NCBI GenBank assembly: GCA_024405265.1
Contig: JAKSOZ010000003.1
Location: 17,498-81,497 of the forward strand
Length of the DNA stretch: 64,000 nucleotides
Origin: Kiritimatiellia bacterium
GTDB lineage: Bacteria; Verrucomicrobiota; Kiritimatiellia; RFP12; UBA1067
Direction: 5' to 3'
Shown: positions 3,840 through 64,000 of the stretch, in pieces
How the letters are laid out: every line of letters starts with the position of its first letter
Numbering within the stretch: position 1 is the stretch's first letter
Notes under the pieces: generated by a model
Seen by the model: the letters and a program-made list of their open reading frames with translations, nothing else
What the model was told of the DNA's origin: nothing
Databases searched by the model: none
Made by a program: the position numbers and the translations under genes

Positions 3840-4840
3840 TTTAGAAATTCTCCAATGTATCTCGCGAGATCTTCAGGATGAGTCAAGAACTGATCGTGCC
3901 CGGAGCCGGTCGAAACGTGGTGATATTCAACGTCCTTCCCGCTCGCTCTCAAAGCTTCGTAAATCGCTTTCGACTGTTCTTCCGTAAAAAGGACGTCCTC
4001 ATCAAGCGAGAACACGCGCACTTTCGCCGCCACATTCGCCATCGCTTTTTCAAGCGAACCGAATTCCTTCGCAACATCGAAACGGTCCATCGCGTCGACT
4101 ATGTGAAGATAGCTGTTCGCGTCAAAGCGACCCACAAACTTCTTGCCCTGATACTGAAAATAGCTCTCGACTTGATAATCTTCACCGAAGGGAAGCGGAT
4201 TTACCCAGTTTTCCTGTTTCTCGCGATGGAATTTGTTCTCCAAATAATCGCGCGAAAGATAGGTGATATGAGCGATCTGCCGCGCAACGGAAAGGCCTTC
4301 CTTCGGCCCCTTCCCGTCCCCGATTTCGTAGTAATCGCCTCCATGATACTCCGGGTCGTTGACGATAACGCGCTTCTGCAGCGCATCATAGGCGAGAGCC
4401 TGAGTATTCATCGACGCCGAGGCTCCGATTATCACCGCGCGTTCCATCTCGTTCGGATAGCGGCACATCCACTCGACGACCTGCATACCTCCGTAGCTCC
4501 CGCCAACGAGCGCGTAAAGCTTGCCTACTCCGATCGTCTTCAGAAAAAGCCGGAAAACGTCGACCGCATCCGACATCGCATACTTCGGAAACTTAGAGCC
4601 ATAAGGTTTACCGGTATCGGGATTGATAGACGCAGGACCGGTCGTCCCCATGCAGCCGCCTAGCACGTTCGCACAAACGATATGAAAACGATTCAAATCG
4701 AAAGTCTTCCCCTCGCCTACCATCTTCGGCCACCACTCAGCGACTTTTGAGTCACCCGTAAGCGCATGGCAGATATAGATGACATTATCGCCAGTATTTT
4801 CGGCGCCGTATTCGTTATACGCGACCGTAATCTCCTTCAA
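3836..4840 (-). CDS. metX: Homoserine O-acetyltransferase (MetX family); start uncertain
   Basis: Alpha/beta hydrolase with [14 protein letters not shown] and nucleophile elbow [12 protein letters not shown]. The ORF-track start (4990) reads straight through tRNA-Leu. The first canonical start after the tRNA is TTG at 4840. The conserved N-terminal strand VSLPLPEGG begins right at the tRNA 3-prime end. Confidence 0.8.
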
Positions 4841-4986: not shown

Positions 4987-6180
4987 TCATTTACCAAGCT
5001 TTTCCTTATGCGAGAAGAAGACTTTGGTCTTGCGCGCGAAATCTTCCTGTTCGGGGAACGTCCCGCCCTTAACGGAGGAGGCGAATTCCTCCAAAATCTT
5101 AATTTGCTTCTTGTCAAGATTCGTAGGAACCTCGAAAACGATACGAGCGTCGAGATCACCGGCAACTCCGCCACGAAGCGAAGTCACACCCTTGCCGCGA
5201 AGACGGAATACCTTTCCGTTAGCGGTTCCGGCGGGGATTTTCAAAGTCGCTTCTCCCTGCGGTGTAGGGATCGAAACCGAGCCTCCGAGCGCGGCGGTTA
5301 TAGGCGAAATCGGAACATCGACGCCCAAATCGAGCCCGTCACGTTCGAAAATCTCGCTTTCCTTAACGCCGAGAATGACGTACAAATCGCCGTTCTCGCC
5401 GCCGCGGACACCTCCGCCGCCCTTCCCGGCCAAGCGAAGTCTCGAACCCGTGTCGACACCAGCGGGAATCTTGAGCTTGATTTTCTGATCCTTGGCGACC
5501 TGCCCGGAACCGTGGCACTTTCTACATGGTTTATCGATCTTCGTGCCTTCGCCTCCGCAGTGGGGGCAAGTCTGCCGAACTTGGAAGAAACCGGAGCCGC
5601 CGATAACCACGCCAGAGCCCCCGCAGGTTTTGCAGGTAACGCGTTGAGCTCCCGGCGCGAGTCCCGTCCCCTTGCACTCATCGCACTGAGACGGAAGCGT
5701 AAGTTCGATATCGCGCTCACTACCGAAAATGGCTTCATCGAAATCGATATCAAGACGAAACGTCATGTCCTCGCCGCGCTTGGGCGCGTTCGGATCGACT
5801 CGACGCTGACGACGCGCGCCTCCGAAGAAATCTCCGAAGCCGCCGAAGCTTCCACCTCCGCCACCTCCGAAGATAGAGCCTAAGATATCGCCTAAATCGA
5901 CGTCTTGGAAATGCGAGAAATCACGTCCGAAATCGAAGCCGCCGGGCCCGAAATTGACACCTTGATGACCGAACTGGTCATAGCGCTGACGCTTCTCCGC
6001 GTTAGAGAGGACTTCATACGCCTCGGAAATCTCGCTGAACTTCTCCTTCGCCTCGGGATTGTCGGGGTTACGGTCAGGATGGTACTTCATCGCGAGCTTA
6101 CGATAAGCGGACTTGATTTGATCCGCCGTCGCTGAACGCTCCACGCCGAGCACTTCGTAATAATCTCTCTTCTCTGCCAT
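4987..6180 (-). CDS. dnaJ: Molecular chaperone DnaJ
   Basis: J domain [35 protein letters not shown]-rich linker, and four CxxCxGxG zinc-finger motifs. Confidence 0.97.
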
Positions 6181-56027: not shown

Positions 56028-56785
56028 AATTCGATCTCCAATCCGTCGTATGCGGGCTCGACGCCCTCGGGTAATACCTTGAGCCACTCGGCGTGAGAGA
56101 CGTCGTGGCACATGTGAATCAAATACGCTTTCTTCGGCGCGATCTTTTCCAAATACTCAAGCGCCGCGTCCTTGTTGAGGTGAGTCGGATGAGGGCGAAA
56201 TCTGAGGCAATTGAGAATCATCACCTCGACGCCCTTGAAAGCTTCGATCGCCTCGTCCGACAATTCATGGCAATCCGAAACATAGCCGAGTTTCTCGTCG
56301 ATCACGTACCCGCTGCAAGGGAAATTATGCTCGACTTTCACGCGCTTGAGCGTCATATCGCCGATCTTGAACTCATCATCGGCGACGAAATTGATCATAG
56401 GCCTGAAGAGCCCCATCGTGTTTTGCTTATCGGAAATATACGGAAAGATACGATGCATCTGTTCGACCGTCTCTTCCGCAGCGAAACACCTCATCGCCGC
56501 GCCCCCGTTCAATGTATTGAACCGCCTCACGTCATCGAAGCCCGCGACGTGATCCATGTGGGCATGAGTAAGGACTACCGCGTCCACTTTATCGATACCG
56601 TATTCGAGCGCGGCGACGCGCATTTCGGGGGGAGTATCGAGCAAAAACGCAGCCGCGTCAGAACGCACGTAAGCGCCGCATCTGCGGCGCTTATCGCGCG
56701 GGTCGGTCGAGGTGCAAACGGGGCAGTCGCAACCGATTTGCGGGACCCCGACCGATGTTCCCGTTCCTAGGAACTTAAAGGTCAC
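56024..56785 (-). CDS. MBL-fold metallo-hydrolase (PhnP-like)
   Basis: 253 aa, GTG start. FLGTGTSVGVPQIGCDCPVC and LTHAHMDH (HxHxDH). Confidence 0.82.
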   Translation of the reverse strand: MTFKFLGTGTSVGVPQIGCDCPVCTSTDPRDKRRRCGAYVRSDAAAFLLDTPPEMRVAALEYGIDKVDAVVLTHAHMDHVAGFDDVRRFNTLNGGAAMRCFAAEETVEQMHRIFPYISDKQNTMGLFRPMINFVADDEFKIGDMTLKRVKVEHNFPCSGYVIDEKLGYVSDCHELSDEAIEAFKGVEVMILNCLRFRPHPTHLNKDAALEYLEKIAPKKAYLIHMCHDVSHAEWLKVLPEGVEPAYDGLEIEL

Positions 56786-56786
56786 T

Positions 56787-58190
56787 TTACTTTACCAACT
56801 CCTTGGCAGGTTCTTCCTTTTCTTCTTCCTTCGCCGCTTCCTTCGCTTTTTCCTTCGCATTCGAAGAGAAGAAAGCTTCGATTTCCTCGAGCGTCTTACC
56901 CTTCGTCTCCGGCATGAAGAAGGTCGCCGTGACGAAGTAGATCACCGTGAAGAACGCGAGCGTGAAGAAGACCCAAGCGTAACCGACGGCATTGACCCAA
57001 GGGTAGAAGACCGACGCGATGGTCGTGGAAACACCCTGGTTGATGAGAAGCGCGATCGCCATACCGTTCGCACGAATACGCGCGGGCATAAGTTCCGACA
57101 AGGCGAGCCAGACGCAAACGCCGGGGCCCGAAGCGAAGAAGCCGATGAAGACCATGAACGAAATCGCGGTCGCCCAGCCGGTTACCTGACTCGCGGCGCA
57201 AATACCGTGCTCAATTGCGAAGAACGAGCCGCCGACGCCCAAAAGACCGACGATAATGCCGAGAGTACCCATCTTAAGGAGGAACTTACGGCCCTTCATA
57301 TCGACGAGCGAAACGGCGACGATAGTCATAACGAGGTTGACGATCTTGATCGCGGTATCGGCATAGTTCGCGACGATGCCGGGAAGACCCGACTTATTGA
57401 AGATATCGACCGAGTAGTTGAGAACCGAGTTGATACCGGTAGCCTGCGTGCAAGCGAGAACGACAACCGCGAGGCAGAACGGCCAAATGTACTTCTTCTG
57501 GAAGAGGCTGTCCTTGGGTCCTTCAACTTTCGTTTCTTCACCCTCACCTTCAATCTTCACCCCGGCCTTCTTGGCGAGCCAAGTCGGAGATTCCTTGAGG
57601 CCGAAGATACCGGCGAGGAAGATGACGCCAGGAATCGCGGAGAGCCAGAAGACGGTCTTCCACGCGGTAACCTTGGTCGCGGCGGAAACGGTTTCAGCAT
57701 CCGCGGCGCCGAAGAACTTGGTGACGCCGACGCCCACGAGAGCCATGAAAACGAGACCGATCGTCAAAAAGAGTTGAAAGAGACCCGTGCCCTTGCCGCG
57801 CTGATCAGCGGGGAGACATTCCGCGAGGTACATCGGGATAACGACGCCGAGAAGACCCGCCGAAGCGCCCTGAACGAAGCGGCCGGCGACCATCACGCCG
57901 TAGTTACCGTCCGAGAAAACGATCATCGGAATCGAAGAAAGAAACACGATCGAGCCGATAAGAATCGTTTTCTTGCGACCTAACCAATCGGCAAAAACAC
58001 CGGCAGGAAGCGAACCGATAACCGAGCCGAAGAGAACCGCGCCGACGACCGTAGAAAGCGCCGCTTCGGAGAAGTAGTTAAGAGCTTTGATGTACGGAAG
58101 CGCGGAAGCGATCGCTCCGACGTCGATACCGTAAAGAAGACCACCGAGGCCAGCCATGCTCATCAAATAAATGATGTAACGCTTGTTCAT
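56787..58190 (-). CDS. MFS sugar porter family transporter
   Basis: 467 aa, 12 TM helices. DWLGRKK, PMYLAECLPADQRGKG and PETKGKTLEEIE are sugar-porter signatures. K/E-rich C-terminal tail. Confidence 0.9.
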   Translation of the reverse strand: MNKRYIIYLMSMAGLGGLLYGIDVGAIASALPYIKALNYFSEAALSTVVGAVLFGSVIGSLPAGVFADWLGRKKTILIGSIVFLSSIPMIVFSDGNYGVMVAGRFVQGASAGLLGVVIPMYLAECLPADQRGKGTGLFQLFLTIGLVFMALVGVGVTKFFGAADAETVSAATKVTAWKTVFWLSAIPGVIFLAGIFGLKESPTWLAKKAGVKIEGEGEETKVEGPKDSLFQKKYIWPFCLAVVVLACTQATGINSVLNYSVDIFNKSGLPGIVANYADTAIKIVNLVMTIVAVSLVDMKGRKFLLKMGTLGIIVGLLGVGGSFFAIEHGICAASQVTGWATAISFMVFIGFFASGPGVCVWLALSELMPARIRANGMAIALLINQGVSTTIASVFYPWVNAVGYAWVFFTLAFFTVIYFVTATFFMPETKGKTLEEIEAFFSSNAKEKAKEAAKEEEKEEPAKELVK

Positions 58191-58269: not shown

Positions 58270-58593
58270 GTGGGCAATACGAAGATAGACCTATCCGGCC
58301 CGAACGAGGTACGTTCAGTCTATGCCGACCGGGAAGTCGAGAACATTCTTCAAGCTGAAGGTTCACCGCATTTACTGCCATACTTGCGGCAAGGAGTATC
58401 ACGAATCTTTTCCATTCCGGTCCTCAATGTGCATCTCGGATATCTCGCGTCTCTATTCAAAGAATGGATTTCCTTGGCTTCGGAGATTCCTGAGGTGATA
58501 GCAGCCGGGCAGATGGTCGAGAGACATCTCACGGGCATTCTCGGGTACTGGGAAGTTCAAGCGCTCGTCAAGTGCCTCAATAGAAGGATCTAA
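58270..58593 (+). pseudogene. ISL3-family transposase remnant (C-terminal fragment, decayed)
   Basis: The only plus-strand coding signal. ...KEWISLASEIPEVIAAGQMVERHLTGILGYWE...LVKCLN resembles the ISL3 C-terminus (...W.....I..F......R....GIL.YF...TN...EG.N.K). The downstream shifted frame reads GKVRWLMKQAY, like the KIK..KR.AYG tail. There is no N-terminal or DDE part. Confidence 0.5.
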
Positions 58594-58636
58594 CGGGAAA
58601 GTAAGATGGCTAATGAAGCAGGCCTATAGCTAAGCC

Positions 58637-58797
58637 TTACCTTAGGCAACCTCTACAACTCGCCTTAGGCGACACCTCCAAGTTGCCTTAGGCGACTTCA
58701 CAACTTCGCCTAAGGCGACTTCATCACTTCGCCTAAGGCGACATCGACAACTCGCCTAAGGCGACATTATAAACTCGACTAAGGCGACTTTCAGCCA
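58637..58797. repeat. Tandem array of 7 x 23 bp with palindromic core TCGCC-TWA-GGCGAC
   Basis: The CCTWAGG core recurs at 58640, 58663, 58686, 58709, 58732, 58755 and 58778, an exact 23-bp phase. Each unit has a 14-bp conserved core and a 9-bp semi-variable tail ending AAC(T). Non-coding. Confidence 0.9.
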
Positions 58798-58879: not shown

Positions 58880-59947
58880 TCAAAGTTGTTCTACTTTAAG
58901 TTTTCCTCTCTCATCAACCTTAAAGTATAGCGCGTAACAATTACGCTCGCAATGCTCGGGCATACACGAAGAAGCTTCCCGCTGATCGCGATGCTCGAGC
59001 GTAGGCGAAGGTTCTGGCGACTGATCGCGATGCTCGGGCAGTGCCCGAGCAATCTTAACGATCTCGTCATTAAGCTCCAAACACGCCCCCCGCGAGAAAT
59101 CGACCTCCTCATTACCCTCCGCTATCTCTAAATACCGATTCTCGAGGAACGCGTCGATATAGACGCTCTCTGGTTTATAATCTATCGGCATCCTATTAGG
59201 CAGTATTCTGATGAATTTCGCGCTCGAACTTTTCGCGAGCATATCTCTCACCGCTCGCTCTCCAGGGCTGATAAAACCACTTATTATGACAAAACCCTGT
59301 TCGACCGCGTTCTCCATTCGCGTGACAATCTCGTCAATCATCTTAGCCGTACATTTTCGCGATATTCTTAACGAAACGAACTTTTCTTCGTTCAACAGCG
59401 CCAGATTTCCCACCCCTTTCCAATAATCATCCCGATCCAAGCGGAATGAATCGATTGGTTCTTTGATCCGAAGCGCTTCCGGGCGATTATGCATTAGCTC
59501 ATACTTGGCCGGATTATACGCGATATATCGCGCAGTTGCTTCGATTTTCTTTCTCTTTAAGCAAAGATGATCGTGGTATCCCTGCTGCCATTTGAGCGGC
59601 GGATTTGCCGCGATATCTTTGGAATAGCGAATAAGATGGTTTTTGAAGCCCGCAATCGCCTTACCGAGGTTTTTCAACGGCTCCGGCAAGTTCGGGAGTA
59701 TTCGTATATTGAAATGGACGTGATCCGGCATGACGACTCGTTCAAATAGCTGCAAGCCATCCGTTTTTATCGGAAGTTGCGCTAGAGTACGCTCAACTTC
59801 TCGTCCAAGCTCGTTCAGAATCACCTTACCATCGACGATCTTTCCGAAATATTCGCCTCTTGGATTTGTGGTGATTGTAACGAAAAGCATCGCACCATTC
59901 GAATAATCCCACTTCTTAAATCGTCGATAGAAATGTATCTCGGCCAT
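58880..59947 (-). CDS. IS200/RAYT-like HUH (Y1) nuclease fused to a C-terminal DprA/SLOG-like domain (tentative); tail encoded by 39-bp repeats
   Basis: N-terminal LFVTITTNPR..., VVMPDHVHFNI (HUH), WQQGYHDHLCL and ARYIAYNP are COG1943-type transposase motifs. Residues about 185-300 (RISRKCT..., GFVIISGFISPGERAVRDML, FIRILPNRMPIDYKPES, LEIAE) resemble the DprA Rossmann core. Residues 303-340 are 13-aa repeats (EHRDQ...). Confidence 0.75.
   Translation of the reverse strand: MAEIHFYRRFKKWDYSNGAMLFVTITTNPRGEYFGKIVDGKVILNELGREVERTLAQLPIKTDGLQLFERVVMPDHVHFNIRILPNLPEPLKNLGKAIAGFKNHLIRYSKDIAANPPLKWQQGYHDHLCLKRKKIEATARYIAYNPAKYELMHNRPEALRIKEPIDSFRLDRDDYWKGVGNLALLNEEKFVSLRISRKCTAKMIDEIVTRMENAVEQGFVIISGFISPGERAVRDMLAKSSSAKFIRILPNRMPIDYKPESVYIDAFLENRYLEIAEGNEEVDFSRGACLELNDEIVKIARALPEHRDQSPEPSPTLEHRDQREASSCMPEHCERNCYALYFKVDERGKLKVEQL
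58943..59055 (+). repeat. 3 x 39-bp tandem REP-like repeat ending in a perfect hairpin (59032-59050)
   Basis: The GCTCGGGCA-type motif occurs at 58954, 58993 and 59032. The last unit, CTGATCGCGATGCTCGGGCA-G-TGCCCGAGC, is a 9-bp-stem palindrome. The array lies inside the 3-prime end of the HUH gene, in frame (13 codons per unit). Confidence 0.85.
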
Positions 59948-59956
59948 ATGTTAGAA

Positions 59957-59965
59957 ATTATATCA
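59957..59965 (-). promoter_or_regulatory. Putative extended -10 promoter (TGATATAAT), near-leaderless HUH gene
   Basis: Minus strand reads TGATATAAT-TTCTAACAT-ATG (ATG 59947). Confidence 0.45.
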
Positions 59966-60030: not shown

Positions 60031-60180
60031 CAGATTGCGATACTCGGTCGTACGCGAATGAGCTACCCTCAGATCGCGCTACTCGGGCGAAGCGTTAGTC
60101 TCGCCTCCCTGATCGCGCTGCTCGGGCGAAGCGTTAGTCCCCTCGCTCTGATCGTGATGCTCGGGCAATGCCCGAGCTAA
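60031..60180 (+). repeat. 4 x 39-bp tandem REP-like repeat ending in a perfect hairpin (60159-60177)
   Basis: Motif at 60042, 60081, 60120 and 60159, an exact 39-bp phase. The last unit, CTGATCGTGATGCTCGGGCA-A-TGCCCGAGC, has the same stem as the copy at 59032. Same orientation as the left array. Confidence 0.85.
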
Positions 60181-60209
60181 CAACAAGCGCCGCGGAGTGC
60201 GCGGCGCTT
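60178..60209 (-). terminator. Stem-loop terminator downstream of the giant surface-protein gene (possibly bidirectional)
   Basis: AAGCGCCGCG-GAGTG-CGCGGCGCTT is a perfect 10-bp GC-rich stem, 38 nt after the stop at 60247. The minus-strand tail is GUUGUUA. The plus-strand tail GUGUUGGUUUUGUU is more U-rich. Confidence 0.5.
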
Positions 60210-60246
60210 GTGTTGGTTTTGTTAGATTTCAGCCATTGACATTGAG

Positions 60247-63200
60247 TTACTTAGTCGCCTTGACGCTGACCTTGTAGTACTTCACCTTATTGTCTCCGGT
60301 GAAGGTCATCGGGATCGAGACCGTCTTCGCCTCGCCGCTCGTCGCCTGATCGCCAGAGCCGGTCGCGCTTTCAAACGTACCATCAGGCGTATCGCACGAC
60401 GAAACCGCGTAGAAGAGACCCGGAATCGGGTTCGTGATCGTGAACTGAACCTTATCCGTCGATTCCTCAGTCGGCGCGGCCATTGTCGTAACCGCCGGTT
60501 GGGTCGTCTGATCATCCTTCAGCGTCGTCGTGATCGTGCCATCTGCGGTCGTAACCGTGCAATAGTCCGTCACATCGTACGCCGAACCGCTTCCGGTCGC
60601 GCTCGGGATCTTGACGGTAATCGTTGTCGGCGCAGTGCCCGTATAGGTTGCTTCCTGTCCGGGAACGAGGGAAACCTCCGTCGTACCCTGCGGGATGACA
60701 ATCTCCGGCGGCACACCGCCGTTCTGCATCAGCTCATAGACCTTAGCCAAGCCAACCTCATTGTAAACGACGCTGTAGCCATCAACTGTGGTCGTAACCG
60801 TGCCAGTGGCAGATGCAACCGTTGCTTTCGACGCTGTAGCCGTCAGAACAAGATTACCAGCGATCGTACCCGAACCTGTAATCGTACCGGCGACTTCAAC
60901 GCCACCGACCGACGTCCAGATCTTGCCCGAGCCGATTGTAACCGTCTTGCCGCTATTAACGACAATCTTACCATCGTTCGCGGCAGTTCCGGAATCGCCG
61001 ATCGTAACGCGAAGATTCGCGGCATCGATATTACCAGTGAAGCCCTCGACACTCTTAAGGAGGATGTTCGCCGTAGAACCGGCACGCGAATTAACCTTGA
61101 GCGTACCCGAGCCGGTAACCTTGAGGCCATAGTTGTAGCCGTTGGAACTATCGCCGATCCATAGAGCCGGTTCATCATTGGCATCAACGAGTTCAACCGT
61201 CGGGCCGAAATCGCCGCCGTTAGCAAGCCAACCGACGTTGCCGGTAGTAATCACTGTCGAGCTGGCATTGCCGTAAGCATTAATGTTGAAGTTCGGGCAA
61301 GTATAGCCACCTGTCGCGCTTTCGCTGTCAGTCTTTCTGAAGGACTTCTTCAAATAAACGCTTCCGTTCCATGTATTCGCCTGGAGGCTCGTCTGAACAG
61401 CGTCAGAAGGAACGCGCTGATCATAAATGAGCTTACCATTACCCGTCAGCTTGGCCGTACCGCCAATTGTTCCTTCGATGCGAATACCTCCGGTCTTCTC
61501 GGCCTGTCCCCAGGTGCCTTCACCATTAAGAGTCAGATCGCCAAGAATGGCATTATCATGATGATCGTTATTCCAAAAGCCGAAGAGGACACGCGCACCG
61601 GAATCGATTGTAATCATCGATCCGTTCGGCATATTCTTGTTTCCGTTCGACTCCCAATCATCATGACCGAAAGTCACCGTCGCATTGTTCGTGACCTTAA
61701 TCTTTAAGGGATCAGCAGGAGCATAGTCCTTCGAGACATAAACCGCTGTTGTCTCGTTGAAAACAACAGTATCATCCGCCGTACGCGTCGTTGCGGCAGT
61801 CTTTGCCTCGTCGGCATAGAACGTCACATTAGCATCCCACGTGTTATTATTCGTGCCGGTACCTTCCTTCCAATAGATTTCGGTTGTATTGCGCTTCGCA
61901 CGGAAGTAATAGCTACCGCCCTCGTAAACAAGACCACCGGTAATATAAGACGGATAATCGGGCTTCAGAAGTTGAATCTTCTCATTGTTCGACGCAATAA
62001 CACCCGTCAACTGGAGATCGACCGGCTGATTCAAAATCAGCGCACCAGTCAGCGACGAGAAGTCAAAAATGATCTTACCATTATCACCAAGCTCCGTCGG
62101 ACCACCGGTAAAGTCAAGCGCTCCATGCTCAATCTTGACCGTCGTATTAACTTCGATCTGTCCAGCCTTGATCATATTGGCCGTCGTCTCGGCAACATCT
62201 GCTGTGAAGGTAACCGTACCCGTACCGTTAATCGTGAGCTTTTCGTACGAAGCGGGAGCCGTAAGGTTATTCGCAACCGTTACGTTCCCTTCGGTCGTCA
62301 ACACCACTGTCTGATTTTCATTCGGCTTGTCGGCCTGCGTCACCGTACCATCCTTCGATGTCAGCGTCCACGCATCCGTCTTGACCCAGTCATCATCCTC
62401 GGTAATCGTGCGCGTTGCCGTGCCATTCAGAGAGGTATACGGGAATTCATCCGCAAACGCCTTAATCGCCTTCTCGCTCAACTGGCAATCAAAGATACGA
62501 ACCGCCGAGATTGTCGAATTTGCCGCCGTCGTATCCGTCGGCTTCACAAGGCCCGTCGAGCCGACACCGCCATGCACCGAACCAACCTGCAAGCTCGAAC
62601 CGAACGACACATTCGAAACCGCCTGCTCGGCCCAATACTTGCCATCGAGATAAACGATAATCGATGTGGCAGTCTTCACAAAGCCATAAGTATGACGTGT
62701 CTCACGCGCATTCGTCACCGTCATCGGATTACCGATGACCGAATAAGCGCTGTTACCCGTCGTACGGACAAGAATAACCTCATTCGGTGAGGTGCCGGCT
62801 GCAAGGCCGATAAGTCCTCCATCTCTCGTACCAAAGGCAATCAATACGCCCTTATTCACATTCGGTACGACGCCGGCGACCAAGCAGGTCCAGGTTGTCG
62901 GATACGAGACCGTAAAGTCTGAATACGGCGTTGCCGGCGTCTTAATCGCCAAGTGATTGTCCGTAAAGCCATTGGATTGCGAGTAACCGGTATCCCAATG
63001 AAGACTATTCGTATTCTTACCCGTGCTCGCCAGATTGCGATCATAAAGGAACGTCCAATCGTAAAGCGCAGCCGTATTCTTAACAACGGGAGTAATCGGA
63101 GTCGTTCCGTTTCCGACCTGAATTTCCGTACCATCAGGCATCACGACAGGTATCTTCACATCGTCGCCAAGTCCCTGGATCGTAATCGAGCCCTGAATCA

Positions 63201-64000
63201 GGTTCTCATTATCGGTAATGGCCGTCTTCACATCACCCTCCTCAACCGTCAACTTGGAGAAGTCGCGGAGATTATGAATGACAAGCGTGCCGGCACCGGT
63301 CTTCTTAAGCGTGCCTGTACCGGTAAACGTCGCATTAAGTGTCATCGTCTTACCGGAAGCAACGTCAAGAGTCGTCTCCGTACCATCCTTCAACGTAATC
63401 GGATTGGCTGTGTCGATAATGAGGTTATTTTCGATGGAACGCACAGTACCGCCGGCCAAGGTCAGAGTCTTACCATCCTTGAAATAAAGGCCCCACTTAC
63501 CAAGTTCAAGGACACCATTTTCAAGTACCTTCAGGGACGAGGCATGGACGCGATTATTGTAGCTGATGCCCATCGCCTTGAAAGTCGCGGTAGCCGAACC
63601 GCCGCCAATCGTCATATCAACGCTGGAGTCGCGTCCGAAGCCGACAGTACCCGTATGCGCATCAATTTCACCACCGACGAAATTGTAGGTCGTCTTGGCA
63701 TTCGGCCAGTGCGCGAAAAGGACAGGCCCTTCCTGGTTATCCATTGTCGAAGGATCCCGATCAAGTTCCTTGGACAGCGTAATCGTTCCGCTCTTCTGAG
63801 TAATCGTCTGCACAGCGCCATTCGAGTTGCCCGTAAGAAGACGTGTAGCGGAGAAATTGCCTTCGAAAATATAATTCGCCTTCTTCTGAGACATACCGAT
63901 GACACCTGTCGCTGTCACCGGACGCGCAACTTCAACAGTTCCCTTCACCTCCGTTGTCTCATACGGAAGAGCCGAGAGCGCCGTCGTGCCTTCAAAGCGA
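60247..64000 (-). CDS. Giant surface protein with autotransporter-associated beta-strand repeats and a LamG/concanavalin-like domain; 5-prime end outside the window
   Basis: More than 1250 aa. The frame stays open upstream of the track start (GTG 63948) to position 64000. TGTGTLKKTGAGTLVIHNL-type repeats. Residues about 296-515 look like a LamG domain (...ILVRTTGNSAYSV...IVYLDGKYWAEQ...RIFDCQLSEKAIKAF). T/G/N-rich beta-helix-like remainder. Confidence 0.8.
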   Translation of the reverse strand, partial: RFEGTTALSALPYETTEVKGTVEVARPVTATGVIGMSQKKANYIFEGNFSATRLLTGNSNGAVQTITQKSGTITLSKELDRDPSTMDNQEGPVLFAHWPNAKTTYNFVGGEIDAHTGTVGFGRDSSVDMTIGGGSATATFKAMGISYNNRVHASSLKVLENGVLELGKWGLYFKDGKTLTLAGGTVRSIENNLIIDTANPITLKDGTETTLDVASGKTMTLNATFTGTGTLKKTGAGTLVIHNLRDFSKLTVEEGDVKTAITDNENLIQGSITIQGLGDDVKIPVVMPDGTEIQVGNGTTPITPVVKNTAALYDWTFLYDRNLASTGKNTNSLHWDTGYSQSNGFTDNHLAIKTPATPYSDFTVSYPTTWTCLVAGVVPNVNKGVLIAFGTRDGGLIGLAAGTSPNEVILVRTTGNSAYSVIGNPMTVTNARETRHTYGFVKTATSIIVYLDGKYWAEQAVSNVSFGSSLQVGSVHGGVGSTGLVKPTDTTAANSTISAVRIFDCQLSEKAIKAFADEFPYTSLNGTATRTITEDDDWVKTDAWTLTSKDGTVTQADKPNENQTVVLTTEGNVTVANNLTAPASYEKLTINGTGTVTFTADVAETTANMIKAGQIEVNTTVKIEHGALDFTGGPTELGDNGKIIFDFSSLTGALILNQPVDLQLTGVIASNNEKIQLLKPDYPSYITGGLVYEGGSYYFRAKRNTTEIYWKEGTGTNNNTWDANVTFYADEAKTAATTRTADDTVVFNETTAVYVSKDYAPADPLKIKVTNNATVTFGHDDWESNGNKNMPNGSMITIDSGARVLFGFWNNDHHDNAILGDLTLNGEGTWGQAEKTGGIRIEGTIGGTAKLTGNGKLIYDQRVPSDAVQTSLQANTWNGSVYLKKSFRKTDSESATGGYTCPNFNINAYGNASSTVITTGNVGWLANGGDFGPTVELVDANDEPALWIGDSSNGYNYGLKVTGSGTLKVNSRAGSTANILLKSVEGFTGNIDAANLRVTIGDSGTAANDGKIVVNSGKTVTIGSGKIWTSVGGVEVAGTITGSGTIAGNLVLTATASKATVASATGTVTTTVDGYSVVYNEVGLAKVYELMQNGGVPPEIVIPQGTTEVSLVPGQEATYTGTAPTTITVKIPSATGSGSAYDVTDYCTVTTADGTITTTLKDDQTTQPAVTTMAAPTEESTDKVQFTITNPIPGLFYAVSSCDTPDGTFESATGSGDQATSGEAKTVSIPMTFTGDNKVKYYKVSVKATK

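Follow-up and report, generated by a model that had tools for sequence, protein, structure and literature searches.

We identify, in a 64,000-nucleotide stretch of DNA from a Kiritimatiellia bacterium (contig JAKSOZ010000003.1, positions 17,498 to 81,497; hereafter the window), a gene whose product joins a Y1 HUH nuclease of the RAYT type to a truncated DprA-like domain. The coding sequence lies at 58880..59947 on the minus strand, starts with ATG, and encodes 355 amino acids; it appears in the list of open reading frames (ORFs), is matched by 768 homologs, and is present in one copy within the window. The ORF is real. Exactly the same protein is recorded at NCBI as MCQ2367640.1, labelled 'hypothetical protein', from a Kiritimatiellia metagenome-assembled genome (MAG; GCA_024500545.1); the source thus belongs to the Planctomycetes-Verrucomicrobia-Chlamydiae (PVC) group, though not to Lentisphaerota. 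The idea that the fusion is a sequencing or annotation artifact was ruled out by hundreds of full-length homologs and by a confident two-domain model (predicted template modeling score, pTM, 0.79). Judged by profile searches and structure models, the fusion is a conserved, undescribed family of RAYT-like HUH nucleases. On balance, we favor the view that the protein is a low-copy chromosomal RAYT HUH nuclease of the domesticated type, permanently fused to a cut-down DprA fold, that combines cutting and joining of hairpin single-stranded DNA (ssDNA) with an ssDNA grip.

The N-terminal domain, residues 1-157 (59477..59947, minus strand), is a class-2 Y1 HUH nuclease resembling RAYT/TnpA_REP according to NCBIfam, Pfam, Foldseek, and its invariant residues. 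An earlier note on this DNA had pointed to the hallmarks LFVTITT, VVMPDHVHFNI, WQQGYHDHLCL, and ARYIAYNP, and all of them are present. The NCBIfam family REP_Tyr_transpos (NF047646) matches residues 15-153 with E=9.5e-13 and 48.3 bits, under its curated cut-off of 80; Pfam Y1_Tnp (PF01797) matches with E=1.9e-4 and 22.0 bits, under its cut-off of 23, and at E<=1 this family is also found in 28 of 45 homologs. The NCBIfam model transpos_IS200 reaches only E=0.016. An AlphaFold2 model of the full protein, built from 45 homologs, has a predicted local distance difference test (pLDDT) score of 87; its Foldseek matches include E. coli TnpA_REP with a REP hairpin (4er8_A; E=4.8e-6, target template modeling (TM) score 0.58, 146 columns) and the IS608, ISDra2, and IS200 transposases.

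The residues expected of such a nuclease are strictly conserved. In the alignment of 45 sequences, H76, H78, W120, Y141, and N145 are invariant. These lie in the HUH motif H76-V-H78 (MPDHVHF; 59714-59722), the WQQGYHD motif (residues 120-126), and the RYIAYNP motif with the putative catalytic Tyr141 (59525-59527), all read on the minus strand; the longer segments W120-Q-Q-G-Y-H and R140-Y141-I-A-Y-N145-P are invariant or nearly so. Conservation of the HUH and Tyr residues, on which the earlier proposal depended, is thereby borne out for H76, H78, and Y141. In the classification of Quentin et al (2018, PMC6006769), a Y---NP arrangement marks class 2 of the TnpA-Y1 proteins, to which RAYT/TnpA_REP belong.

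Residues 158-304 (59036..59476, minus strand) are predicted to form a truncated DprA-like Rossmann (SLOG) domain, as indicated by the AlphaFold2 model, Foldseek, hhalign, and the residue mapping to HpDprA described below. The peptides from which the DprA resemblance was first drawn by eye (RISRKCT, GFVIISGFISPGERAVRDML, FIRILPNRMPIDYKPES, LEIAE, and FSRGACLELNDEIV) are all found in the translation, and hhalign reproduces that alignment nearly column for column. Across the family the domain is marked by the signatures WKGVGN, LRvSR, SGFISPGE, YKPES, GN, and FxRxxCLxxN. Modeled in isolation, residues 158-304 have a pLDDT of 89, and when this domain alone was searched with Foldseek the best 14 matches were exclusively DprA (from S. 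pneumoniae, H. pylori, and R. palustris) and the DprA-like ShosA, with E from 1.2e-5 to 1.4e-3 and TM of 0.63-0.72 on the query. The SLOG protein YpsA (E=0.023) and LOG structures (E~0.9) rank lower. Profile comparison agrees: when a family profile of 95 sequences, taken from a hidden Markov model search of 1.84 billion representatives, was compared by hhalign with a multi-species DprA alignment of diverse sequences from PDB alignments, the probability was 90.8%, with E=1.2e-6 across 147 columns.

Less sensitive comparisons recovered little of this relationship. Pfam DNA_processg_A (PF02481) matches with E=0.061 and 12.9 bits, against a cut-off of 29.6, and over profile positions 35-81 only. 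Searches of PDB sequences gave nothing useful, either by phmmer with the whole protein or by hmmsearch with a 22-sequence profile of the C-domain. When the shallow profile A2 was compared with the single E. coli Smf sequence, hhalign returned 0.3% probability; significance came only with the more diverse family profile and the multi-species DprA alignment. A homolog search with E. coli Smf yielded, among the matches listed, DprA from enterobacteria alone, all at 68% identity or more. The check proposed in the earlier note, profile and structure searches of residues ~158-304, does find DprA, and the note's assignment of both domains is right.

Given the hhalign alignment, individual positions can be mapped to HpDprA. 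The HpDprA residues R52, Y108, K137, F140, R143, and N144 contact ssDNA, and two DprA signatures have been proposed, motif 1, G-S/T/A-R (HpDprA G50-R52), and motif 2, F/L/Y-x-x-R-N/D (F140-N144) (PMC3950713). In motif 1, S196-R197 correspond to T51-R52 and are kept in at least 90% of homologs, with the Gly replaced by Ile or Val. E230 takes the place of the Asp of SGxAxGxD, Y257 that of Y108, and the invariant R286 that of K137; within motif 2 (C289-L-E-L-N293), C289 maps to F140, L292 to R143, and N293 to N144. Four of the six pocket positions are still compatible with the HpDprA ssDNA contacts.

The earlier note had likened this domain to a RecA loader; this part of the proposal is unsupported because the protein ends where the DprA dimerization helix would start (PMC3950713). 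The β7/α7 'SGS' segment of DprA is deleted, the polypeptide stops ~13 residues past the position of HpDprA Pro183, and there is no α8 equivalent. The conserved DprA dimer core (HpDprA Pro183, Leu196, and Phe205), which overlaps RecA-binding residues in pneumococcal DprA (PMC3950713), is mostly absent, with essentially no counterpart in our protein. The chain closes instead with a conserved terminal β-hairpin, residues 339-355 (YALYFKVDERGKLKVEQL; 58883..58933, minus strand), seen in the homolog alignment, in hhalign, and in the AlphaFold2 model (strands 337-344 and 350-354, pLDDT 71-96). This hairpin matches the conserved C-terminal 'GLALYWKxxGP' of homologs without the repeat insertion described below, and hhalign sets it on HpDprA 'PLFVLP', DprA strand β8, so that it appears to complete the Rossmann-like sheet. 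Our conclusion from alignment and model is that the C-domain would be a truncated DprA-like ssDNA-binding (or base-binding) module and not a RecA loader, a DprA fold reused without its dimer/RecA surface.

The fusion is widespread. Whether it is conserved had been raised as a question in the earlier note; a search of 5.8 billion clusters returned the 768 homologs, mostly 320-400 amino acids long, and most of them cover query residues 1-300. The C-domain profile recovered 383 clusters at 50% identity (among the 1.84 billion representatives), and nearly all full-domain matches with at least 120 upstream residues carry HUH and Y---N, even below 30% identity. The HUH and Tyr residues are still recognizable in even the most distant relatives, the exception being one two-domain relative, P0240, with a degenerate HUH. 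Genomes with the two-domain protein belong to Kiritimatiellia, Lentisphaerae, and Verrucomicrobiota, and more distant relatives, with 24-28% identity, come from Muribaculaceae, Porphyromonadaceae, and other Bacteroidales; many of these genomes are rumen or gut MAGs. Where other genomes carry paralogs, these have diverged. Standalone versions are rare: in one, P0215 (L209, 3001-3531), a 176-aa DprA-like domain without HUH is encoded by a gene that overlaps the stop codon of a HydF-like GTPase gene, with slyX next. P0210 and several other proteins of 150-200 aa may be standalone DprA-like domains too. We also observed a predicted protein of 1605 aa, P0135, with ~29 near-identical 53-aa units that match C-domain profile positions 37-71; it looks like an assembly or tandem-duplication artifact of a C-domain fragment.

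The earlier note recognized no described family here, and we found none either. None of the 12 published TnpA-Y1 subclasses joins DHVH, WQ, and YIAYNP with a tail of ~190 residues (PMC6006769), and a search of the literature on RAYT, HUH, and SLOG/DprA proteins, including RAYT work since 2018, found no description of a RAYT-DprA or HUH-DprA fusion. Searches of IMG/VR, PHROGs, and PADLOC found no relatives; a defense-system or phage origin was dropped on these empty results, despite the structural match to the antitoxin ShosA. The HUH plus DprA-like combination, missing from Pfam, NCBIfam, and the 2018 TnpA-Y1 classification, should surprise specialists. Its members, labelled hypothetical, are frequent among gut and rumen lineages that have received little study (Kiritimatiellia, Lentisphaerae, Verrucomicrobiota, and Bacteroidales).

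The gene is flanked and invaded by a 39-bp hairpin repeat. The earlier note had treated these repeats as incidental; we consider them likely substrates of the protein and an essential part of the picture. All seven copies of a 17-mer core of the repeat in the 64 kb lie at this locus; chance would give 0.74 copies, and none of 100 shuffles reached seven. Two arrays lie on the minus strand in the same orientation. The upstream array (60033..60177) has four 39-bp units, with the full hairpin GCTCGGGCATTGCCCGAGC at 60158-60177 and units that decay with distance from it; it sits between a terminator-like hairpin (60183-60211) and a TGnTATAAT box. The in-gene array (58943..59051), delimited by repeat scans and homolog alignment, is an in-frame insertion of three 39-bp units at residues ~300-338; read on the coding strand, it opens with the hairpin GCTCGGGCACTGCCCGAGC (59032-59050), followed by ATCGCGATCAG. 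On the coding strand both arrays open with the perfect hairpin GCTCGGGCA(c/t)TGCCCGAGC and then ATC(G/A)CGATCAG, and their 30-nt end sequences are 93% identical. In the later 39-nt units of both arrays, the right arm, the tail, and a ~20-nt spacer are all that is left, and the units decay away from the hairpin. A CRISPR-like array was ruled out; there are only two to four units, no alternating foreign spacers, and one of the arrays is inside a coding sequence.

In homologs with at most 60% identity, the sequence runs straight through as '...IATAGE-GLALYWK...', and so the repeats are an insertion between the last helix and the conserved terminal β-hairpin; in the alignment and model they sit in a surface loop, not at the protein end. 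The description of the protein's tail as 39-bp repeats read in frame therefore holds for residues ~300-338 but not for the last ~17 residues, which are the conserved β-hairpin of repeat-free homologs. The insertion is missing in homologs under 74% identity. Orthologs with 91% and 74% identity carry it at the identical codon, but its size varies: three units in the window, two in P0001/L212, and two with 36-bp spacing in P0003/L211, all multiples of three. Repeat-derived peptides in other members (EHSSG/EHSSAI, DGQTVFGQ, ASPDGRGLSG) fall in the αC-β4 loop and at the C-terminus, and L207 offers an example of a 21-bp x 3.9 in-gene array with the hairpin CCGAGCACAGCTCGG. Of 23 two-domain loci, 12 have a tandem array (period of at least 15) no more than 500 bp from the gene, with 0.33 arrays per kb inside that distance versus 0.05 per kb farther out (~6-fold); the 50 one-domain RAYT relatives are enriched in the same way. 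In-frame invasion of the enzyme's own loops, together with the unit differences between orthologs, would be a natural record of its presumed activity.

The strand on which the repeats lie is also informative. GC skew is negative across the whole plus strand of the window (-0.03 to -0.13) and the minus strand carries nearly all long ORFs, which indicates that the whole window belongs to one replichore with the minus strand leading. In the coding-strand reading, the hairpin with its tail would then be on the lagging-strand template. IS608-type enzymes act on the lagging-strand template, and the same may apply at this locus.

From these observations we propose how the protein might work; cleavage, substrate, and ssDNA binding are all predictions drawn from sequence and model. 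The HUH domain would recognize, as ssDNA, the hairpin GCTCGGGCAyTGCCCGAGC together with the tail ATCGCGATCAG on its 3' side (minus, coding strand; lagging-strand template), and would cut and rejoin at the hairpin/tail, with Tyr141 forming a 5'-phosphotyrosine. Through its equivalents of HpDprA Arg52, Tyr108, Lys137, and Asn144, the DprA-like domain could add a second grip, on ssDNA or bases, that keeps hold of the strand that is displaced or flanks the site. The polar arrays, in which a full hairpin precedes units of right arm, tail, and 20-nt spacer, might arise if cutting and joining, or slippage, recurred next to the founder hairpin. By the same process units could enter the gene's own loops, surviving only as multiples of 3 bp. 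The locus supplies both a defined protein and a 30-nt hairpin-plus-tail candidate substrate, which makes RAYT-substrate recognition directly testable.

Several observations weigh against this proposal. The NCBIfam and Pfam scores of the protein all fall short of curated cut-offs. In the C-domain, the motif 2 Arg is gone (L292 at HpDprA R143) and Phe140 is replaced by the invariant Cys289, with Asn293 itself invariant; given the loss of the Arg and the change of Phe140 to Cys, the pocket may bind something other than ssDNA. No copy of the 39-bp unit occurs elsewhere in the 64-kb window, which thus gives no sign of a dispersed REP/REPIN population, the hallmark of RAYTs; the two arrays are direct, unlike the inverted repeats of classical REPtrons. 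A metagenome scan for GATCGCGMTRCTCGGGC, which is silent on dispersal in the source genome, gave 120 single-copy matches and no locus with more than one, consistent with chance, and the pattern CCGAGCAYAGYTCGG, searched across the fetched homolog loci, matched only the source locus and its duplicate. Finally, many homologs lie in glycan-synthesis operons with overlapping starts, which hints at a host function apart from repeat spread.

The altered pocket is the starting point for one alternative, in which the C-domain is a SLOG-type ligand sensor like LOG or YpsA, and a nucleotide or nucleotide-derived molecule switches the HUH nuclease on or off. We regard this as unlikely, although the invariant loop SGFxSxGE and the invariant Cys289 are foreign to DprA motifs, the motif 2 Arg is lost, YpsA and LOG-family structures are among the weaker Foldseek matches, and the standalone domain adjoins a HydF-like GTPase gene. 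The best 14 structural matches are nonetheless all DprA or ShosA, with E-values three orders of magnitude better than that of YpsA; the LOG signature PGGxGTxxE is absent from the C-domain, where the family loop is SGFISPGE; and the equivalents of four HpDprA ssDNA-contact residues are conserved. The same fold could instead suggest a recombination mediator that loads RecA on ssDNA from the HUH nick, coupling cleavage to homologous recombination. Homology of the C-domain to DprA and the gain and loss of units in the arrays are compatible with such a role, but the chain stops just past the β8 equivalent, 'SGS' is deleted, and the dimer core, which the pneumococcal RecA contacts overlap (PMC3950713), is mostly absent; we find it highly doubtful.

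The repeats and the genomic contexts raise two further alternatives. The locus might be an autonomous insertion sequence (IS) of the IS200/IS605 kind, with the hairpins at 59032-59050 and 60158-60177 as right and left ends and the protein as its transposase. The hairpins do bracket most of the gene on the same strand, subterminally, as in IS608, and the 30-nt ends are nearly identical. This reading is nevertheless very improbable indeed: the conserved last 17 codons fall outside the would-be element, orthologs with 74-91% identity share the codon at which the in-gene hairpin sits, the gene is single-copy in 64 kb with divergent paralogs elsewhere, the motif is Y---NP and not the Y---Q of IS200, homologs hold the same glycan-operon place across species, and there is no tnpB, nor room for a tnpB ORF between the gene and its neighbors. 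Those contexts are, in turn, the basis for a host function at cell-surface loci, in which programmed rearrangement or copy-number change of local repeats would tune genes for glycans or giant surface proteins, with the nearby arrays as local targets and no spreading repeat family. Five of the six homologs on long contigs (L203, L205, L207, L213, and L215; gene at 6001) are co-oriented in glycosyltransferase/nucleotide-sugar clusters, with start codons that overlap the upstream gene by 4-11 nt; the sixth (L214) lies between giant surface-type proteins, and the window gene likewise adjoins a giant surface-type ORF. The lack of dispersed copies within the window also fits. However, several contexts are syntenic and hence not independent (this partial synteny speaks for vertical inheritance in a fixed position and against mobility), surface-glycan loci may, we assume, attract mobile DNA, housekeeping genes lie on the other side of the window gene, and no invertible or phase-variable element was identified. 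The glycan-operon link, if true, would point to a host function, but we judge this account improbable.

Returning to the fused RAYT nuclease that we favor, a bolder form of it deserves mention, though we would put only a small chance on it: the protein may be a self-contained 'tandem-array writer' in which the HUH domain nicks by the founder hairpin, the DprA-like domain holds the freed strand, and units of right arm, tail, and spacer are added or removed singly. If true, this would provide programmed length variation in intergenic arrays and, by threes, in coding loops; it would act at cell-surface and glycan loci of gut PVC bacteria and Bacteroidales; and it would amount to HUH-driven local hypervariation of a new kind, unlike REP/REPIN dispersal or transposition. 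RAYTs are textbook domesticated bacterial transposases whose cellular role is debated, and this family adds a second recognizable nucleic-acid-binding module to their HUH core. Compact sequence-specific HUH domains serve as covalent ssDNA-protein tags, and one that brings its own ssDNA grip may prove useful in practice.

The immediate surroundings of the gene contain a promoter-like element and a terminator-like site. An extended -10 sequence, TGnTATAAT (59957..59965, minus strand), ends 9 nt before the ATG and is kept in the two orthologous contigs L211 and L212 with the same spacing; the promoter consensus scan needs a -35 box, and this box is therefore absent from its output. Its position suggests, from sequence, a leaderless or near-leaderless mRNA, and would place the upstream 39-bp array outside the transcript. 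The terminator-like site (60183..60211), a 12-bp GC-rich hairpin with T-rich tails, separates the gene from an upstream ORF of 1233 aa (60247-63948, minus strand). That ORF is rich in T, G, S, and N, ends at this strong terminator-like hairpin, has no Pfam match at E<=0.01, and is probably a large secreted or surface protein. The neighbors on the other side in the window are a sugar transporter, an MBL-fold protein, TsaD, and DXS. A plus-strand ORF of 423 aa (56712-57983), antisense to the sugar-transporter gene, is probably spurious. At 58270-58620 on the plus strand, short overlapping ORFs in two frames with HRIYCHTCGKEY and IAAGQMVERHLTGILGYWE resemble an ISL3-type transposase remnant; the sole support is a weak match to Pfam DDE_Tnp_ISL3 (E=0.11, profile positions 168-206).

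A second type of repeat lies 90 bp 3' of the stop codon, at 58640..58790, where 6.5 tandem 23-bp units carry the 13-nt palindrome TCGCCTWAGGCGA. We counted six matches versus 0.18 expected, and as ssDNA the array folds much better than shuffled sequence (z = -10.3); the central base of the palindrome changes from T to A midway along the array. Similar arrays of a 22-bp palindrome are found near homologs in L005 (1761-1932) and L006 (2697-2847). Beyond the 39-bp arrays and this downstream array, there is no sizeable tandem array elsewhere in the window. In L006, a Kiritimatiellia MAG locus, the homolog is bracketed by two nested pairs of long inverted repeats, an inner pair (2488-2568 / 4064-4144) of 81 nt with 95% complementarity and an outer pair (1066-1186 / 5425-5545) of 121 nt with 92% complementarity; by its sequence, the stretch they bound could be a composite or invertible segment.

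Among known systems, E. coli TnpA_REP/RAYT (4ER8; class 2, PMC6006769) shares the Y1 HUH fold, the HUH, W, and Y---NP motifs, low copy number, and hairpin repeats beside the gene. It differs in that our protein has ~190 additional residues forming the DprA-like domain, in that the arrays here are tandem and in the same orientation instead of inverted REPs, and in that no dispersed REP population appears in the window and the NCBIfam score is 48 versus the cut-off of 80. TnpA-Y1 subclass 2.4 (Bertels group 4; Cyanobacteria/Bacteroidetes) has REPs inserted in the transposase gene and core insertions of variable length, with a parallel in the insertions at residues ~300-338 here and in the αC-β4 loop of many homologs; its proteins, however, are ~194 aa, with NH[IFV]H and YIxNNP, and lack a C-terminal domain. 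Subclasses 2.1 and 2.3, like our family, combine a class-2 HUH core with a large conserved C-terminal extension, which is related to a helix-turn-helix/DnaA_C in 2.1 and is its own 61-position domain in 2.3; neither is reported as DprA-like, and both differ in their NHVH/NHYH, WE, and Y[IV]xLNP motifs, are found in Proteobacteria, and are reported without REPs.

IS200/IS605 TnpA proteins (IS608, ISDra2) have the same Y1 HUH fold, and here as there both hairpins lie on one strand, which would be the lagging-strand template. Unlike these transposases (subclass 1.1; ~150 aa, Y---Q), the fusion protein has 355 aa, Y---NP, and no tnpB; there is one copy in the window instead of multiple identical copies, and the gene runs past the would-be end. 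For the second domain, the closest systems are DprA/Smf (PF02481; 3UQZ, 4LJK/4LJR, 3MAJ) and ShosA (8ZVA), which share the Rossmann-like fold at a TM of 0.63-0.72. Segment by segment, VGSR corresponds to RvSR, SGxAxGxD to SGFISPGE, iYP to YKP, and the Asn of RN(R) to N293. Compared with DprA, the domain here has ~165 versus ~205 residues, β7/α7 are deleted with nothing past β8, the motif 1 Gly and motif 2 Arg are lost, and there are no sterile alpha motif (SAM) or winged-helix accessory domains.

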